From a virus (Duplodnaviria > Heunggongvirae > Uroviricota > Caudoviricetes): 24,547 bases of DNA. The stretch is from the IMG/VR virus record IMGVR_UViG_2706794689_000010. One strand, given 5' to 3'. Below the pieces are notes generated by a model that saw nothing but the letters and a program-made list of their open reading frames with translations, was not told where the DNA came from and did no database searches. Positions within the stretch are counted from its first letter, which is position 1. Every line of letters starts with the position of its first letter. This document shows, piece after piece, positions 11,486 through 24,444 of this stretch. Made by a program: the position numbers and the translations under genes.

Positions 11486-12114
11486 TTGTCACCCCCATTG
11501 ATATGCAGGGTGTCTTCTTCCTGTATTTTTCGTGAAGGATTTTTACTGCAGCGTTGTTCCAGGTGACCTGATGGTGAATGCGTTTATGACTGGCACCCAT
11601 AAGTGAGATTTTTACGCACGACGGCGCATACATGACGGAGTAAAAACTTTTAACGTAGGTTCCGGAATCCAGATACAGCTCGGTCATTCCGCCGCTGTTT
11701 TTCTGCGTCTGTTTCTGCCCTAACTGGACAGCACCGATCGTCATAAACAATTCACCACAGCGACCGAGATTCGTGTACGTATTCACATCCTCGTTAATGC
11801 GCCCCATGAATGAGAACGGTCGATCAACCGAACAGATAAAGCTGTTCATTGCCTTGCGTTTCACCCACGAAGCATGGCCGCCATTGTCACCAAGAAAATC
11901 CCCGCCCTGCGACATAGCGATGGAAAGAGCAGGTATTGATTCGTAGTACGCAAGCATTTCAGAAAGGATCTCATCCAGTTTCCTTATCGGGAAATAGGCC
12001 TGGTCATAGTTGCGATCCACCCGAAACTGGAACTCGTGATAATCATCATCGAGCTGAATGAAGTATTTACACCCGACCAGTTTTGCCTGGTCGAAACAGG
12101 CATTACGGGCGTAA
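11421..12114 (-). CDS. hypothetical protein with DxD-like motif (FIQLDDDY); N-terminus hidden in N block 12115-12370
   Basis: Frame is open from the mask edge: ...YARNACFDQAKLVGCKYFIQLDDDYHEFQFRVDRNYDQAYFPIRKLDEILSEMLAYYESIPALSIAMSQGGDFLGDNGG...; the GTG start given by the track is internal. Confidence 0.4.
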
Positions 12115-12370
12115 NNNNNNNNNNNNNNNNNNNNNNNNNNNNNNNNNNNNNNNNNNNNNNNNNNNNNNNNNNNNNNNNNNNNNNNNNNNNNNNNNNNNNN
12201 NNNNNNNNNNNNNNNNNNNNNNNNNNNNNNNNNNNNNNNNNNNNNNNNNNNNNNNNNNNNNNNNNNNNNNNNNNNNNNNNNNNNNNNNNNNNNNNNNNNN
12301 NNNNNNNNNNNNNNNNNNNNNNNNNNNNNNNNNNNNNNNNNNNNNNNNNNNNNNNNNNNNNNNNNNNNNN

Positions 12371-12842
12371 CTCCCCGCCATGCATGATCTCCACCATGCG
12401 CTGCGTCATTCGGACAAATCCATTTTCAATAGCCTGCTGATAATCAATGATCACCAGCGCCGACTCCTCGAAAAGGCACTGAATTTCAGCGGGGGCATGA
12501 GCGTAATAGTCCGCAATTCTGCTGAAATTAAACACCGTGTGACGTTCTGCTGCACACAGGAGGAATTTCTCAATATCAGGATCAAGGGACGCCGAACGTA
12601 TCCGGCTGATCAGCTCCTGAGTTTTCGTATCGTCGTACAGTTCACTGATATCCGGTTTACCGCCTGACGGCTCATAAACAGGCGTATCAATTTTCGTCGT
12701 ATACGGCTCCTCCTCATTTCCTGTACCGGGCAAAACATCCGTCAACAGTTCATCAATTTCTGCCGGGATGAAGCCTGTCAGGGAGACATCAAAATCAGCA
12801 TTGATTAGGTCCGACAGCTCCATCCGCAACAGATCTTCATCC
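12371..12842 (-). CDS. hypothetical protein (both ends in N blocks)
   Basis: Open frame ...DEDLLRMELSDLINADFDVSLTGFIPAEIDELLTDVLPGTGNEEEPYTTKIDTPVYEPSGGKPDISELYDD...VRMTQRMVEIMHGGE; the TTG start given by the track is internal. Confidence 0.35.
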
Positions 12843-16311: not shown

Positions 16312-16551
16312 CTAACCTCGCATGTCAAAGCCAGATTTCTGAAAATCTCTGTAGACTTCCGGATTGTTGAAGGCCGGAAATTTGGCTTTATGAGCTGCGG
16401 ACTTTATCGCTTCGCAATAGGCTTTATCACCGTTACTGGTAGATATTTTTAACGCCGTGCCATCCTGAGAGAATTCCATATGCAACCTGCATTTTTTCCC
16501 TTTCCAGTTATGCGGCTCATCAAGTTTGGCATTAATTGCAGCTCTGATTCC
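16312..16551 (-). CDS. TolA C-terminal (domain III)-like protein, second copy; N-terminus hidden in N block
   Basis: Visible C-terminal 79 aa GIRAAINAKLDEPHNWKGKKCRLHMEFSQDGTALKISTSNGDKAYCEAIKSAAHKAKFPAFNNPEVYRDFQ align with the TolA domain III pattern (GK.C.L......G.L......GD...C.A...A..KA..P....VY..F). Confidence 0.55.
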   Translation of the reverse strand, partial: GIRAAINAKLDEPHNWKGKKCRLHMEFSQDGTALKISTSNGDKAYCEAIKSAAHKAKFPAFNNPEVYRDFQKSGFDMRG

Positions 16552-16804
16552 NNNNNNNNNNNNNNNNNNNNNNNNNNNNNNNNNNNNNNNNNNNNNNNNN
16601 NNNNNNNNNNNNNNNNNNNNNNNNNNNNNNNNNNNNNNNNNNNNNNNNNNNNNNNNNNNNNNNNNNNNNNNNNNNNNNNNNNNNNNNNNNNNNNNNNNNN
16701 NNNNNNNNNNNNNNNNNNNNNNNNNNNNNNNNNNNNNNNNNNNNNNNNNNNNNNNNNNNNNNNNNNNNNNNNNNNNNNNNNNNNNNNNNNNNNNNNNNNN
16801 NNNN

Positions 16805-17212
16805 CCCATTTTGAAATACTTTATATACTTCCGGCGAAGGGGGGGCAGGTATATCAGCATTCTTTATCGCATTCATCGCTTCACGACATAAATCGAGGTC
16901 TCCACTTTCTCTTTTAACCTCCAGTAGAAGGCCATTCGGGGCCATATGCATTCTCAGTGTACACTCTTTTCCTGAATACTTACTCGCATCCCCGAACTGT
17001 TTTTCGATGGCGCTCTTGATTTGATGGGCATACAGACGGATATCCTCACTAACATCAGAAGTACGTTCAGATGAACTCACATACTGTGTCTCTATTGCTT
17101 TATCGGAGTAATATGATGTACGGTCATGATAATTTGTCGATACAGCATCAGTGCACCCGATAATAATCCCACTAATAATCAACGTAAGAATTGATGCGCT
17201 ACGAAAACCCAT
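16805..17212 (-). CDS. lipoprotein with TolA C-terminal (domain III)-like domain; C-terminus hidden in N block
   Basis: Signal peptide and lipobox MGFRSASILTLIISGIIIGC; then LYAHQIKSAIEKQFGDASKYSGKECTLRMHMAPNGLLLEVKRESGDLDLCREAMNAIKNADIPAPPSPEVYKVFQNG, which matches the remembered E. coli TolA C-terminus (YAGQIKSAIESKFYDASSYAGKTCTLRIKLAPDGMLLDIKPEGGDPALCQAALAAAKLAKIPKPPSQAVYEVFKN); GAGGAAAA RBS. Confidence 0.65.
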
Positions 17213-17241
17213 TTTTCCTCACATATGTCATATAGTAAAGG

Positions 17242-17271
17242 ATTATATATACCGTTGTTTTGGACGCTCAA
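17242..17271 (-). promoter_or_regulatory. candidate sigma70 promoter for the TolA-domain genes
   Basis: On the minus strand TTGAGC (plus 17266-17271), 18-bp spacer, TATAAT (plus 17242-17247), about 30 nt upstream of the ATG at 17212. Confidence 0.3.
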
Positions 17272-17801
17272 ACAGCGAATCAGATCAAATAAAACGCACA
17301 TTTGTTAACATTTACACAAAGTCTGCGTGGGATATTCTGAAAGAATATCCATAATGTGGAGAGAATCTATTGAAGTGCATGGTGCCGGGTGCCTCCCGGT
17401 GAACAAAATGTTCGTGATACCTGTCGGCGACAGAAAAGGTTAATGGTATCACCCCACCGCACAGGGGGATTCACCATGCAGGAGTTTTCTTAGCAAACTC
17501 ACTGCGCGCCCGGCAACTCCCAACCACATAAAATGCGGAGTTTGTGGCATTTATGCATATAACTCGCAGGAATTATCTTAAAAAACTGATGTCGATCCGG
17601 ATTAAAAAGAAGCAGGTCATCATCAGATGACTGGAAAAAAGGAAAACAAAAAATACTCATCATACAGTTTTGATTGCAGGGATGAGCCTGCTATGCACAA
17701 TATGCAGAATATAAGCAAGATAAAAATATGCAGGCATATTATTTCGGATCTTGTTATTAACACAACCTTTTTAATAATCATTTGGCATACAATAAACCAG
17801 C

Positions 17802-17829
17802 CCAAAAAGAACCGCCTAAACAGGCGGTT
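17802..17829 (-). terminator. rho-independent terminator inside the Q-S intergenic region
   Basis: Stem aaccgcc/ggcggtt (17810-17816 / 17823-17829) with 6-nt loop; cuuuuu follows on the minus-strand transcript only. Confidence 0.4.
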
Positions 17830-18149
17830 GGTCAATACAAAGGATGCTTCGTCTTTATTATAGTAATCTGAGGCGTCGGGTGTCTTGTATCAGACAACAT
17901 ATTGTCCCGCTAAACAGCGAATTACAAACCACCCTGCAATGATCTCTCATCTCATTTTATATGAGTTGACGACATCAGGATAACGCATCATCAGCCCCTG
18001 CCAAGAAATATCAAAACTCCCGCCAGCAATGTGTTATCACAATATTGTAAAAAAAACACAGCACCGAAACTATAACTGGTCTCTGTTATAATTTGGAGCA
18101 GAAAGACCAGTTGCCCAACTAGCAGCATTCTCCCCTGCTTTCCTGACGT

Positions 18150-18177
18150 AAAAAAACCGCATTAAGCGGTTTTTTTA
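18150..18177. terminator. bidirectional rho-independent terminator (tR'-like) about 80 nt downstream of the Q-like gene
   Basis: aaaaaa-accgc-attaa-gcggt-tttttt: perfect hairpin flanked by an A-run and a T-run. Confidence 0.6.
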
Positions 18178-18231
18178 CGATGTCCATGTCTGCAATCCGC
18201 CTCGCGATACAGCTTTGCGAAGCATAGCAAA

Positions 18232-18260
18232 ATTGAAGCAGTTTATACGTAAGAAATCAA
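18232..18260 (-). promoter_or_regulatory. candidate late promoter PR' (Q-dependent), overlapping the Q stop codon
   Basis: Minus strand TTGATT, 17 bp, TTCAAT; a transcript from here would reach the tR'-like hairpin after about 55-70 nt, like the lambda PR'-6S-tR' arrangement. Confidence 0.3.
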
Positions 18261-18799
18261 GCCATTTTCTCAGCAAATGATTCACGCATGGGAATATATA
18301 GGGCATACTCAGCAACAGCTAACCAATTAGCAATCCGTTTTTCGCATGTGCTAAAACACCACTCTGGGTGTGCATCATTTAGCAATTCAGCCATTTTGCG
18401 CTTAGTCATCCCCCGCCCTTCATAGCGTTGCCGGAGAATGCAAATCAATCCTGGATGCTCTGCCAGCACCTCACTTATGACTCGATCAATACATAACGCC
18501 TCTGCATCAGTACAATGCGCCAGCCAGCTCTTTTGCTTGCCGTTGATCATCTCTCGCAAAAACGCTTCCAGCTCAGCTTTCTCTATTCCCGCTTTTTTCA
18601 TTCTGCGCAGGGCTTCATTAATGGCTGTTTTCGTCAGTTTTTTGGATGCCAACAACTGATTGAACATATTCCCTGACCTGCCACCGCCAATATACGACCA
18701 GCGCCCCCACATACGTAGTTTTCCCTGAATCCAGACACTTTCCAGCGTGGTGAGGCGAAGGTGTTCTCCGCTTTTTCCTGTATTCGTTGGGTAAATCAT
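18257..18799 (-). CDS. putative antiterminator Q-like protein
   Basis: 180 aa, MIYPTNTGKSGEHLRLTTLESVWIQGKLRMWGRWSYIGGG...; located between a ybcO-like nin gene and a promoter/terminator pair just upstream of the lysis cassette. Family assignment is by position and a weak WGxW-type resemblance only. Confidence 0.45.
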   Translation of the reverse strand: MIYPTNTGKSGEHLRLTTLESVWIQGKLRMWGRWSYIGGGRSGNMFNQLLASKKLTKTAINEALRRMKKAGIEKAELEAFLREMINGKQKSWLAHCTDAEALCIDRVISEVLAEHPGLICILRQRYEGRGMTKRKMAELLNDAHPEWCFSTCEKRIANWLAVAEYALYIPMRESFAEKMA

Positions 18800-18968: not shown

Positions 18969-19770
18969 CGCACGTCCCCGCCAGCCTGNNNNNNNNNNNN
19001 NNNNNNNNNNNNNNNNNNNNNNNNNNNNNNNNNNNNNNNNNNNNNNNNNNNNNNNNNNNNNNNNNNNNNNNNNNNNNNNNNNNNNNNNNNNNNNNNNNNN
19101 NNNNNNNNNNNNNNNNNNNNNNNNNNNNNNNNNNNNNNNNNNNNNNNNNNNNNNNNNNNNNNNNNNNNNNNNNNNNNNNNNNNNNNNNNNNNNNNNNNNN
19201 NNNNNNNNNNNNNNNNNNNNNNNNNNNNNNNNNNNNNNNNNNNNNNNNNNNNNNNNNNNNNNNNNNNNNNNNNNNNNNNNNAACGAAACCAGACAGCAGT
19301 TCTCGTTCGCGAGGCGTGNNNNNNNNNNNNNNNNNNNNNNNNNNNNNNNNNNNNNNNNNNNNNNNNNNNNNNNNNNNNNNNNNNNNNNNNNNNNNNNNNN
19401 NNNNNNNNNNNNNNNNNNNNNNNNNNNNNNNNNNNNNNNNNNNNNNNNNNNNNNNNNNNNNNNNNNNNNNNNNNNNNNNNNNNNNNNNNNNNNNNNNNNN
19501 NNNNNNNNNNNNNNNNNNNNNNNNNNNNNNNNNNNNNNNNNNNNNNNNNNNNNNNNNNNNNNNNNNNNNNNGTAAAGCCCCACATAGCATGAACAAACAC
19601 TACATATCAAATAGCTGGTACAAGGATAGAAATACGACACTTATTATTAAAAACGATTAGATAAATTACATTTTAATGTTATGCAAAAGTTCTTTTTTAT
19701 CATAACATTTCAATAAAAGCATTACAGATGCAATCATCCCGTCATCATCAATTATTTAAGGTGGTTAAAC

Positions 19771-19857: not shown

Positions 19858-20258
19858 AGTAGCCACATGATAAGTTGCTGGAATCATATTTCCCACTCAA
19901 GTCATTAACATTTGATAAGATATATCTAAAAGGACGCCTTTACATTATTTATGCGTNNNNNNNNNNNNNNNNNNNNNNNNNNNNNNNNNNNNNNNNNNNN
20001 NNNNNNNNNNNNNNNNNNNNNNNNNNNNNNNNNNNNNNNNNNNNNNNNNNNNNNNNNNNNNNNNNNNNNNNNNNNNNNNNNNNNNNNNNNNNNNNNNNNN
20101 NNNNNNNNNNNNNNNNNNNNNNNNNNNNNNNNNNNNNNNNNNNNNNNNNNNNNNNNNNNNNNNNNNNNNNNNNNNNNNNNNNNNNNNNNNNNNNNNNNNN
20201 NNNNNNNNNNNCTATCTTCTCCTCTAATCAACATATCAATTATGTGTTTCATAACAGC

Positions 20259-22289: not shown

Positions 22290-23123
22290 TTAAAATTCAT
22301 GAATGAACGGTTTGTCATCTGGTTGCAAAATGGTGGTTTTATTCGTTGCTACATTTAAACTGTTGTAGAGCATAATTGCCAGGTTCGATGCATTTTCAAT
22401 CAGCGTTTCAAGATCCTGGTCTGTAATCACTACGAGGTTCCCTTCTTTATCCTTTCCACCACGATGCACTAAGTGATTTCGATTGAGGGTTGCCAATTCA
22501 ATAGCTTCTATCGGACAGTCTTTTTGTACTTTTATATCGAATGTAGCTTCATAGCGGTCGATTACCTTTTTAGTGCTATGCCAGCTTGCACTGATCAAGT
22601 GTTCCTTGATTGACCTGATTAGCTCTCCCCTAATTTTCTCGATGGGTTCACCCTTGAAAGGCAACGCAGCAATATCTTTGCTTACTTTAAATTCAGTCTT
22701 ACCTTTTTCTATACAATTGGCTATGTAGACATCATCTTTCTCTATAGAATTAATGAATAGCTCAACATAAAGCGTTTCCAAAGCTGTAATAACATTCGTG
22801 TAGAGCAAACTAAGCAAGTGGTTTTTTTGCTGTTGTTCAGTTTTATCTTTTGCAAGTTTTTTTATTTTATCGATATTATCAATGAATTTTAAATACGGAT
22901 TACCGGAAGACGTTACAGCGTCGTAGATATCATCATCGTACCAATCATCTATATTATTTGAGTTTCCAGACCAGTCAAAACATTGTGTTTGTAATTCATC
23001 TACTAATTCCTCAATATACTCAGATTTAACATATTGACCGAAGATGGATTGTAGTTCTTCGCTCGCATCATACGGCCCGCCATATATGTAAGCATAGCCA
23101 CCTTCTCTACTTTCATACGGACA
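22290..23123 (-). CDS. HEPN-like (Rx4H motif) protein, N-terminus hidden in N block 23124-23381
   Basis: Open frame from the mask edge to the stop at 22290; contains ELATLNRNHLVHRGGKDKEG (R-x4-H, HEPN-type RNase signature) within a predicted helical C-terminal region; strongly A/T-rich; same-frame stop at 23382-23384 places the start inside the mask. Confidence 0.5.
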   Translation of the reverse strand, partial: CPYESREGGYAYIYGGPYDASEELQSIFGQYVKSEYIEELVDELQTQCFDWSGNSNNIDDWYDDDIYDAVTSSGNPYLKFIDNIDKIKKLAKDKTEQQQKNHLLSLLYTNVITALETLYVELFINSIEKDDVYIANCIEKGKTEFKVSKDIAALPFKGEPIEKIRGELIRSIKEHLISASWHSTKKVIDRYEATFDIKVQKDCPIEAIELATLNRNHLVHRGGKDKEGNLVVITDQDLETLIENASNLAIMLYNSLNVATNKTTILQPDDKPFIHEF

Positions 23124-23475
23124 NNNNNNNNNNNNNNNNNNNNNNNNNNNNNNNNNNNNNNNNNNNNNNNNNNNNNNNNNNNNNNNNNNNNNNNNNNNNN
23201 NNNNNNNNNNNNNNNNNNNNNNNNNNNNNNNNNNNNNNNNNNNNNNNNNNNNNNNNNNNNNNNNNNNNNNNNNNNNNNNNNNNNNNNNNNNNNNNNNNNN
23301 NNNNNNNNNNNNNNNNNNNNNNNNNNNNNNNNNNNNNNNNNNNNNNNNNNNNNNNNNNNNNNNNNNNNNNNNNNNNNNNNNCTATTGGCACAAAGCGGAC
23401 AACCACGCTAGCTCTCCCCTGTGCCAGAAAAATGTCAATTTACATATGAACTAATGCTCTTTGATCTAGTAACGT

Positions 23476-24444
23476 CTATAAATACCGAAGATTTCCTTGA
23501 TAAAATGCCAGTACACGTTTCATAACTTCACTCTTCCGGCACTCGCGACAGATTATGTTCTGACGCCTGTCATAGCGGCGTATTTCTCCGTCTGGTAATG
23601 ACCAGATNNNNNNNNNNNNNNNNNNNNNNNNNNNNNNNNNNNNNNNNNNNNNNNNNNNNNNNNNNNNNNNNNNNNNNNNNNNNNNNNNNNNNNNNNNNNN
23701 NNNNNNNNNNNNNNNNNNNNNNNNNNNNNNNNNNNNNNNNNNNNNNNNNNNNNNNNNNNNNNNNNNNNNNNNNNNNNNNNNNNNNNNNNNNNNNNNNNNN
23801 NNNNNNNNNNNNNNNNNNNNNNNNNNNNNNNNNNNNNNNNNNNNNNNNNNNNNNNNNNNNNNNNNNNNNNNNNNNNNNNNCGACTGCACAATGTCCGCCA
23901 CAGTTTCTGTTTTAATATCTTCCTGTGTTGCCGCTTCCTGTACTGGTAACGCAACACCGGCTGGCTGAGGAAAGGCTTTACCATCAGTTTCCGCTACCGA
24001 TGCAGCTTTCGGCTCTGCTGGTAAATTATCGCCCGGCATGCAGTAACGAAATTTACTGTTCTGGTTTACGCGAATCAGGCGTCCTTTGCTGATTGCCATT
24101 GCCAGCGTTGAAGCAACTTTGCGGGATGTTGTACCGAACAGCGTAGCCAGTTCATCCGCCGTTTGTGGTCCGCGTTGTTCAATCGTCGCGGTTAAATCGC
24201 ACTCTGAGATTTTCACTACAGTTGCCGTGGTGGTTTCTTCCGGCAGTTCTGCCTGCATTGGCTGTTCCTGCTGAACGTTGTTATCAGCCACACGCCAGGT
24301 GTACGCGCTTTTATCAACGAAACCAGCTTTTTTCAGTTCCCATAGTTCGTTCAGCACTTCTTCACGACTGATATCAAGTCGCGCAGCAAGTTCTATGGAT
24401 GTGGCTTTTCCCATTGCTTTCAGTGCGTCAAAAACAGTCTCCAT
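23476..24444 (-). CDS. early-region protein with two winged-helix-like segments (middle hidden in N block 23608-23880)
   Basis: Start at ATG 24444 (GGAGGAAA, 7-nt spacer): [52 protein letters not shown]...; second wHTH-like stretch [31 protein letters not shown]; the track's N-terminal extension overlaps the upstream gene and has no RBS. Confidence 0.5.

Follow-up and report, generated by a model that had tools for sequence, protein, structure and literature searches.

A likely Rac-like late-gene switch of the antQ-isrK kind, followed by a partly decayed STnc100/PasD-related RNA module, in a prophage of Escherichia coli

What fills the 1044 nt that separate a Q-like antiterminator gene from the next gene in a Rac-like lambdoid prophage of Escherichia coli? 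The prophage is IMG/VR virus record IMGVR_UViG_2706794689_000010, a stretch of 24,547 nt that we call the window, and its late genes, like all of the genes that are relevant here, are on the minus strand. Positions 17213-18260 of the window (1048 bases) are found again at 99.8-99.9% identity in RefSeq E. coli chromosomes, and at least 80% of this segment is present in 446 genomes. The annotation of the matching chromosomes is empty between 'DUF1133 family protein' and 'TolA'. We consider it likely that the gap begins with a Rac-like late-gene switch of the antQ-isrK kind and continues with a partly decayed copy of an RNA module related to the small RNAs (sRNAs) STnc100 and PasD. The first unit (18260-18147) appears to be a divergent cassette of the Gifsy-1 antQ-isrK type, and the second (about 18146-17804) belongs to a mobile non-coding module of about 300-370 nt that is carried by lambdoid prophages and is known from at least 18 lineages. 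The late genes and the parts of the first unit are as follows.

18799-18257, then 17212-16312, minus strand: the order of the late genes, with the Q-like gene, the gap, and then two cargo genes with TolA C-terminal domains
Downstream of the TolA-domain genes, minus strand: a P21-type holin, lysozyme, Rz/Rz1, and trkG
18257-18799, minus strand: the Q-like antiterminator gene of the DUF1133 family (180 amino acids, TGA stop at 18259-18257)
18232-18260, minus strand: the putative PR' promoter, with −35 hexamer TTGATT (18260-18255) over the TGA stop, a 17-nt spacer, and −10 hexamer TTCAAT (18237-18232)
18195-18229, minus strand: the start of the leader, with a predicted transcript start at about 18225-18223, TGcTATGCT at 18229-18221, and the conserved GCTTCGCAAAGCTGTATCGCGAGGCG, which folds as a 7-bp hairpin
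18147-18179, both strands: the terminator tR', a perfect 14-bp stem (CGTAAAAAAACCGC/GCGGTTTTTTTACG) with loop TTAAT

The Q-like protein matches Pfam's DUF1133 strongly (E = 2.5e-107) and PF06530 at the borderline (26.1 bits, cut-off 26). PF06530 is the family of Q21 and one of three Q families that have been named, the others being PF03589 and PF06323 (PMC9388147). A search of the PDB with the single sequence gave no significant structure match (best E = 0.27), and an AlphaFold2 model from a 29-sequence alignment was too poor to use (mean predicted local distance difference test score of 58.8), so a profile was searched against the PDB sequences instead. The profile, built from 32 family members, matches the Q21 chains 6P18_P/6JNX_P (E = 2.8e-8), and the match spans the N-terminal W..G.L..WG.W motif and the C-terminal half. 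The DUF1133 protein is thus a distant relative of Q21.

An earlier reading of the same DNA (the original prediction) had placed a PR'-like promoter across the stop codon of the Q-like gene, and the TGA does fall within the −35-like TTGATT. A generic promoter scan did not list TTGATT-17-TTCAAT, because the −10 hexamer does not have A at position 2. The assignment of PR' draws its support from comparison among relatives rather than from consensus matching. We compared the DNA after the Q stop in 34 distinct relatives (from E. coli, Salmonella, Citrobacter, Klebsiella, Enterobacter, Serratia, Providencia, Edwardsiella, and others). A conserved GCTTGA(A/T)T contains the TGA stop. In the E. coli group, the TTG of the −35 hexamer, the TTCAAT 17 nt later, and GCTTCGCAAAGCTGTA.CGCGAGGCG in the leader are all invariant. 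Near-consensus hexamers are found at the position of PR' in Providencia (TTGACT-16-TATAGT) and in Edwardsiella (TTGACA-16-TAGTAT), and the hexamers of the Salmonella isrK promoter stand at the same place (TTGACT-17-CTATAT). Also, 66 bases of the window (18260-18195) recur at 92-95% identity beside Q(DUF1133) genes that have unrelated DNA downstream, which is the signature of a module made of Q and its loading site.

Within this segment, the motif TTACG.A.AAAC in the PR' spacer is conserved among the relatives and is a candidate for the Q-binding element. The isrK alignment described below (which runs from 18223) and the geometry of the promoter together suggest that transcription starts at about 18224. 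The −10-like TGcTATGCT is a candidate sigma-dependent pause element, or else an alternative extended −10. The candidate pause motif TAnGCT, at about −2 to +4, is absent from the isrK-type relatives.

The original prediction also held that a perfect bidirectional terminator follows the promoter about 55-70 nt later, by the same logic as in lambda. This is borne out: tR' begins 55 nt past the −10 hexamer, and it folds strongly on the minus strand (−19.7 kcal/mol, z = −5.8) and on the plus strand (−19.5 kcal/mol, z = −5.5). It was not listed by a terminator scan, since its T-run forms part of the 14-bp stem. The position of tR' is kept in relatives from enterohaemorrhagic E. coli (EHEC), with changes in the stem compensated (A-U to G-C). 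Conservation among related prophages extends well beyond these: a hairpin plus T-run begins 47-114 nt past the Q stop in 30 of the 34 relatives, and two more were found by eye. The leader RNA, ended by tR', would be about 75 nt long (18223-18150).

The link to IsrK comes from close relatives. In two of them, one from Salmonella and one from E. coli, a match to isrK (RF01394; 75.6 bits in locus L154 and 67.1 bits in locus L158) begins 36 nt past the Q stop. The Q genes of these relatives, which are 84-89% identical to that of the window, adjoin isrK on its upstream side, as AntQ does in Gifsy-1. The window's own leader (18223-18150) aligns to the full-length isrK model at 21.6 bits, below the gathering score of 50, and shares its plan of a 5' hairpin, a linker, and a terminator. 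So, the leader is a divergent relative of IsrK by position and architecture, and is not an Rfam member by score. Across the region of 17802-18260 as a whole, Rfam gave only sub-threshold matches that are driven by the terminator (Thr leader, AgrB, OrzO-P, and isrK). The PR'/tR' logic that had been proposed by analogy with lambda has therefore held up, given an upstream gene that matches Q21, a promoter-leader-terminator layout that is kept across the Enterobacterales, and the isrK leader in close relatives.

In the isrK-type relatives, a C4 antisense RNA (RF01695) directly follows isrK (L154 2575-2776 and L158 2588-2768), and in L154 the C4 match overlaps a match to the c4-a1b1 target. The order of isrK and C4 corresponds to a P1-type immI (c4-icd-ant) layout right behind a Q gene.

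What lies beyond tR'? The second unit has the following parts.

18097-18146, minus strand: the 5' flank of the module, with homology (about 77%) to what follows tR' in EHEC O103/O157 prophages, as well as to the module's 5' region in other lineages
18068-18081, minus strand: P1, the GAC/GUU stem in GAGAC-CAGUUAUA-GUUUC, with 3 of 3 pairs in the window
17966-18058, minus strand: a U8 run (18058-18051) and the position of P2, whose arms are 18051-18023 and 17994-17966; degenerate
17804-17961, minus strand: the 3' domain, a divergent and partly decayed STnc100/PasD-like body, with TATAAT (17862-17857) in an A/U-rich linker
17953-17948 with 17875-17870, minus strand: P3, a long-range helix with 5 of 6 pairs in the window
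17804-17829, minus strand: P7, a terminator (AACCGCC-TGTTTA-GGCGGTT, then C-U5) with 7 of 7 pairs

This segment has homologues elsewhere. A block of 125 nt (18093-17969) matches a prophage with an unrelated antitermination gene (250 amino acids), where it lies after tRNA-Gly, and the final 82 nt match phage 683R6 and E. ruysiae. Alignment shows homology across the whole 300-370 nt. Pattern scans of IMG/VR and profile searches yielded 59 distinct full-length module sequences, which fall into 18 lineages (less than 96% identical to one another). Among 5426 complete E. coli genomes, 444 have a copy of the window type and 435 are matched by a query of the L007 type (phage 683R6). The annotation under these matches is either absent or 'hypothetical protein'. 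The usual context is tRNA-Gly, then the module, then the holin gene, and SerU-LTIIb has that order twice; a tRNA scan of the window found no tRNA gene. In BLAST searches of phage records, the L007 module had just two matches, and the region studied here was matched in its Q-end block and its STnc100 part only.

Two diverged copies of the module are found in tandem cassettes at L223 (2069-2435 and 2879-3206), at L186 (2515-2858 and 3306-3635), and at L287 (SerU-LTIIb). Other loci have the 5' hairpin domain alone (L053 and L070) or the 3' domain alone, directly after PR'-tR' (L049-L051). Therefore, the two domains of the module shuffle independently.

The helices of the module were obtained with RNAalifold on the 18 lineages. 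P1 is a small hairpin, and P2 is a hairpin of 29-31 bp whose 5' strand starts in the U-run. P3 is a long-range helix (GAGGUG/CACCUC) that encloses three hairpins, including CGGG-AGGCA-CCCG, and P7 is the terminator. Across the 60 pairs of the structure, 95.1% of cells have standard pairing, as compared to 37-53% if the partner is slid by 1-3 columns. Changes on both sides are seen in 18 pairs, as compared to 9.5±2.0 in shuffles (0 of 500 shuffles reach 18) and 4-9 in the slid controls. In P1, 2 of the 3 pairs have a compensatory change across the lineages. In P2, 95.4% of cells are paired over 28 pairs, 8 of which are compensated, and the hairpin has a predicted energy of −40 to −51 kcal/mol (z = −6 to −11) in 15 of the 17 lineages other than the window's, with a much weaker fold on the opposite strand. 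The stem of P7 is constant in all 18 lineages, and its loop varies.

The apical part of P2, GGUGGAGAUUUUGUAUUUCCUGGCAGGG (alignment A5 columns 76-106, window about 18022-17995), is conserved in sequence as well as in pairing, and this may mark a binding site or seed. Next, within the 3' arm, come an AGGG that resembles a Shine-Dalgarno sequence and an AUG/GUG. The short open reading frame (ORF) in this arm (MMRYPDVV...) ranges from 8 to more than 60 codons among lineages by hand translation, and we took it as a by-product of the helix.

The helices also indicate the strand. There are 148 G·U cells and 13 A·C cells, and the share of paired cells is 95.1% if the late-gene strand is read and 82.5% if the other strand is. 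Thus, the module is an RNA that is read in the late direction. This bears on a different reading of the locus, in which an antisense sRNA of about 80 nt is made from the plus strand: it would use TGtTATAAT (18084-18092), start at about 18099, stop at 18147-18179, and oppose the late transcript. An A-tract lies upstream of the motif, which fits TGnTATAAT perfectly; the L005 lineage retains it as TGtTATAGT, and tR' works both ways (18093-18180 has a plus-strand fold of z = −5.6, mainly due to the terminator). However, the G·U pairs point to the minus strand as the one that forms the conserved structure, and the plus-strand Rfam matches come from the terminator only. Also, the motif is lost in most module lineages (the L007 type has CATAGC, and L262 has CG for TG), the EHEC relatives that share 18097-18150 do not have the plus-strand promoter, and the L005 lineage has the promoter but no terminator downstream. 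We therefore see an antisense RNA as quite improbable.

Two other features of this part of the window had drawn attention in the original prediction.

18074-18112: a 9-bp inverted repeat, aactggtct at 18074-18082 and agaccagtt at 18104-18112, with a 21-nt loop
17991-18128, minus strand: a hydrophobic ORF of 45 codons, judged to be non-coding

It is conceivable that the repeat is a functional operator or RNA hairpin, or that the ORF encodes a small hydrophobic peptide such as a type I toxin, and we rate this as very improbable. The repeat is present as described, with both arms perfect, and its loop contains, on the plus strand, the extended −10-like TGtTATAAT discussed above, so that the arms bracket a −10-like motif. 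But its left arm is not found in other module lineages (the block differs there), and its right arm overlaps P1, a different hairpin that is conserved. The minus-strand fold of the repeat is weak (z = −1.8). If loops of 3-40 nt are allowed, perfect inverted repeats with arms of 9 bp or longer number 9 in the window and 2.5±1.6 in shuffles, and one such 9-bp repeat is not more than chance. In our view, the repeat arose incidentally at a mosaic junction, and the claim that it is functional fell. The ORF does exist, and its product is hydrophobic, but it has 45 codons at 17991-18128 rather than 48 at 17982-18128. Its frame is shifted by a T8/T7 polymorphism among copies that are 99.8% identical and by a 4-nt indel in the L005 lineage, its product has no Pfam match, and it spans the mosaic junction, with its start in a different block from the remainder. 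These observations speak against a peptide gene.

If the late transcript passes through an RNA module, does the module have a promoter of its own? By eye, the alignments contain no conserved −35/−10 pair for sigma-70. The most serious rival to our account is nonetheless of this kind: an independent short sRNA gene, transcribed from AAGACA-18-TATAAT (17886-17857) into an RNA of about 45-50 nt, with 17829-17804 as its terminator. No other site in the region matches a promoter as well (10 of 12 positions), and a −10-like hexamer (TATAAT, TACAAT, or CATAAT; TAYAAT) is found at the matching place in nearly all module lineages, along with a conserved UGACCAACCGCC just ahead of the second terminator. 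However, the −35 AAGACA corresponds to the decayed loop of the CGGG-AGGCA-CCCG hairpin, and other lineages have GCACCC there, which is not a −35. The TATAAT is not extended by TG. The hexamer is located in the A/U-rich linker, which is single-stranded, and its conservation could equally reflect a seed, an Hfq site, or an RNase E site. A separate short gene seems unlikely.

The second terminator was correctly described as minus-strand only and about 320 nt beyond tR' (321 nt, at 17829-17804), and it is the P7 of the module. A T-run at 18058-18051 was considered as a third terminator and was dropped, because in the family it forms the 5' strand of P2.

How is the module related to known sRNAs? 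The 3' half of the L007 module gives a full-length match to STnc100, with the same architecture, at 22.9 bits, which is below Rfam's gathering score for STnc100 (RF02076) of 47 bits. The 3' domain of the window (17804-17961) had no match to Rfam's STnc100 at E up to 5. We built a covariance model (R1) from the 3' halves of 16 lineages other than the window's. R1 matches the window at 17961-17804 (46.3 bits, E = 1.2e-10). Canonical copies of STnc100 are matched as well, with E values of 1e-8 to 4e-5: those in EHEC and Klebsiella loci score 38.9, 37.2, and 26.9 bits, and the one in the window (17484-17340) scores 25.9 bits. In E2348/69, R1 matches just upstream of the esterase gene (22.5 bits), which is the position of pasD (PasD2): pasD has been placed just upstream of an esterase gene in that strain (10.64898/2026.05.13.724894). 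A search upstream of the canonical STnc100 copies did not find the 5' hairpin domain. The module is a new form of the STnc100/PasD kind to which a hairpin domain has been added. At threshold, Rfam 15 does not contain it, and no annotation marks it as RNA. It could reasonably be proposed as a new Rfam family or as an extension of STnc100/PasD.

The canonical copy in the window is the following.

17323-17509, minus strand: canonical STnc100 (RF02076), 86.6 bits, about 300 nt downstream of the region discussed above

So, the gap contains two STnc100-superfamily elements in tandem. The terminal hairpin of the canonical copy (GGAUAUUCUUUCAGAAUAUCC) is followed by CACGCAG rather than by a U-run. This hairpin may not terminate, and the element could be part of the 5' untranslated region of the TolA-domain gene.

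The window's copy of the module is an outlier in the family, with the long hairpin and the core helices mostly lost. It retains 3 of 3 pairs in P1, 5 of 6 in P3, and 7 of 7 in P7, but 0 of 3 in P4, 4 of 6 in P5, and 1 of 4 in P6. Its P2 has 26 of 31 nominal pairs, and the fold (−19.9 kcal/mol, z = −0.5) is no better than shuffles. The suggestion that the second unit could be a small RNA was right in that the segment is homologous to a structured STnc100/PasD-like module, but the window's copy does not have most of the conserved helices. In this prophage, the unit is probably mainly an extra terminator and at most a weakened sRNA. As the copy is decayed, the local consequence for the prophage is probably small.

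Several observations weigh against the account given here. At the promoter, position 2 of TTCAAT is not the key A, so the hexamer does not pass the generic scan, and the true −10 could be TGcTATGCT, in which case transcription would start about 11 nt away; the elements proposed for Q binding and pausing are guesses. The leader of the window is well under the isrK threshold (21.6 versus 50 bits), and the copies of the module in the window and in L007 are both under the STnc100 threshold. The window's module is degenerate, as its P2, P4, and P6 attest. The window's lineage is near-clonal (over 99% identity in the 444 genomes), so the conservation of its copy is uninformative about selection. For the family, the shuffle control for covariation ignores phylogeny, and the number of further pair types was not above that in shuffles (369 of 500). 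Finally, the RNase III processing that we propose below is suggested by the length of the duplex only.

With these points in mind, we propose the following mechanism. A constitutive PR' would start the leader at about 18224, and most transcripts would stop at tR' to give an IsrK-like RNA of about 75 nt. Q, once made, is expected to load onto RNA polymerase at the promoter-proximal region. The polymerase would then read past tR' and the terminators at 17829-17804 and 16186-16169 and would transcribe the TolA-domain cargo genes and the lysis genes. The original prediction that late transcripts must pass at least three terminators agrees with our count ahead of the holin gene on the minus strand: tR' (18179-18147), 17829-17810, and 16186-16169. 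RNA from the module, which is without a visible promoter of its own, would be made from read-through of the upstream terminator or from co-transcripts with tRNAs. In well-preserved lineages, cleavage of the RNase III type at the long duplex of P2 might set the sRNA free. There is a parallel in Gifsy-1, where one promoter just downstream of antQ yields IsrK and a read-through mRNA. Some transcripts pass the IsrK terminator, and the stable STnc1160 downstream of IsrK has been suggested to be a processing product of the read-through RNA (PMC4825925).

A more ambitious possibility is that the module is a previously undescribed class of lambdoid-prophage RNA: promoterless, cleaved at its duplex, and acting as an Hfq-type regulator in lysogens. 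We hold this tentatively and think it somewhat doubtful. If it were true, then the output of an sRNA would be tied to the leakiness of a late-gene terminator.

The original prediction described an A/T-rich non-coding stretch. The region is mildly A/T-rich (G+C content of 0.40-0.44 over 17800-18260, as compared to 0.475-0.50 in the Q gene), and truly so only at 17600-17900 (0.32-0.36), but it is not a mere spacer, since it contains a homologue of the RNA module. Runs of N mask parts of the window (e.g., 16600-16800, 18989-19300, and 19950-20200). ORF calls there are unreliable because these runs interrupt the TolA-domain genes and genes upstream of Q.

The TolA-domain genes (16312-17212, minus strand) occupy the 'moron' slot between Q and the lysis genes, in which relatives have genes for Stx or for LT-II/pertussis-like toxins. 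The product of the first TolA-domain gene starts with MGFRSASILTLIISGIIIGC, which resembles a lipoprotein signal. Conceivably, this protein is periplasmic and its TolA domain acts as a decoy for phages or colicins that depend on TolA. A promoter-like TTGAGC-18-TATAAT (17271-17242) lies ahead of this gene and might permit expression in lysogens.

In L001, a near-identical RefSeq locus, a second gene is annotated as 'antiterminator Q family protein' (11915-12433, which is about 23100-23650 of the window). Within this prophage region, about 5 kb separate it from the DUF1133 Q gene, which is downstream of it, and between the two are a Hok/Gef gene and a gene for a nucleoid-associated protein. The region may be a composite of two late-control modules. 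In EHEC O103/O157 and strain 4621 (L002-L004), a homologous Q-leader-terminator is followed by an ORF for a 65-amino-acid 'hypothetical protein', then by a gene for a helix-turn-helix protein or a DNA methyltransferase, and then by tRNA-Ile/Arg genes. In L003 and L004, canonical STnc100 comes directly after the last tRNA.

Proteins of the DUF1133 family are common in prophages of E. coli, Salmonella, Klebsiella, and other Enterobacterales. The link to IsrK ties these uncharacterised proteins to AntQ of Gifsy-1, which is the one studied member, and to Q21, and the promoter-leader-terminator arrangement provides a template for testing antitermination by DUF1133 proteins. An 'empty' kilobase between Q and the cargo genes turns out to have two STnc100-superfamily elements. 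The part most worth following is the module's RNA family, with its clear covariation and unusually long duplex.

How does the locus compare to known systems? The antQ-isrK cassette of Gifsy-1 in Salmonella and the window have the same family of Q, and in both a −35 TTGAnT lies over the TGA stop. Each leader is about 75 nt long and is made up of a 5' hairpin, a linker, and an intrinsic terminator. The two differ after the leader terminator: Gifsy-1 has the C4 antisense RNA, orf45, and anrP, and the window has a hairpin and the STnc100-like module.

Other lambdoid cassettes (those with lambda 6S RNA, those of phages 21 and 82, and that of StxS, PMC7547250) share with the window the order of Q, promoter, short terminated leader, and late genes, and also the presence of several terminators ahead of the lysis genes. 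In our searches, the window's leader had no sequence similarity to those of lambda, phage 21, phage 82, or StxS. StxS shows that a PR' leader can be an Hfq-bound sRNA and a regulator in its own right (PMC7547250). The window's Q protein is a distant homologue of Q21, for which structures have been reported (10.1101/651190, PMC9388147). As a DUF1133 protein, it lies outside the three Q families of PMC9388147, with PF06530 matched only at threshold.

PasA and PasC are prophage sRNAs that lie ahead of a holin gene and are cut from longer transcripts (10.64898/2026.05.13.724894). Like the module, they are sRNA-type elements of the pre-holin region. We rejected the idea that the module is PasA or PasC, as an nhmmer search with the module's profile found nothing at the pasA and pasC loci of E2348/69 (L183 and L184). 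Also, pasA is on the minus strand (supplementary tables of 10.64898/2026.05.13.724894), opposite to the late genes of the E2348/69 record, which are on the plus strand.

The closest comparison for the second unit is with STnc100/PasD (10.64898/2026.05.13.724894; PMC8550237). These RNAs and the 3' domain of the module share a long-range helix around CGGG-AGGCA-CCCG, an A/U-rich linker, and a terminator. The module family as a whole has this architecture, and the window's copy retains P3 and the terminator but not P4 or P6. The module has an extra 5' domain, composed of P1 and the 29-31-bp P2, that was not found upstream of the canonical STnc100 copies. STnc100/PasD and the module also have the same place in prophages, between Q and the lysis genes.

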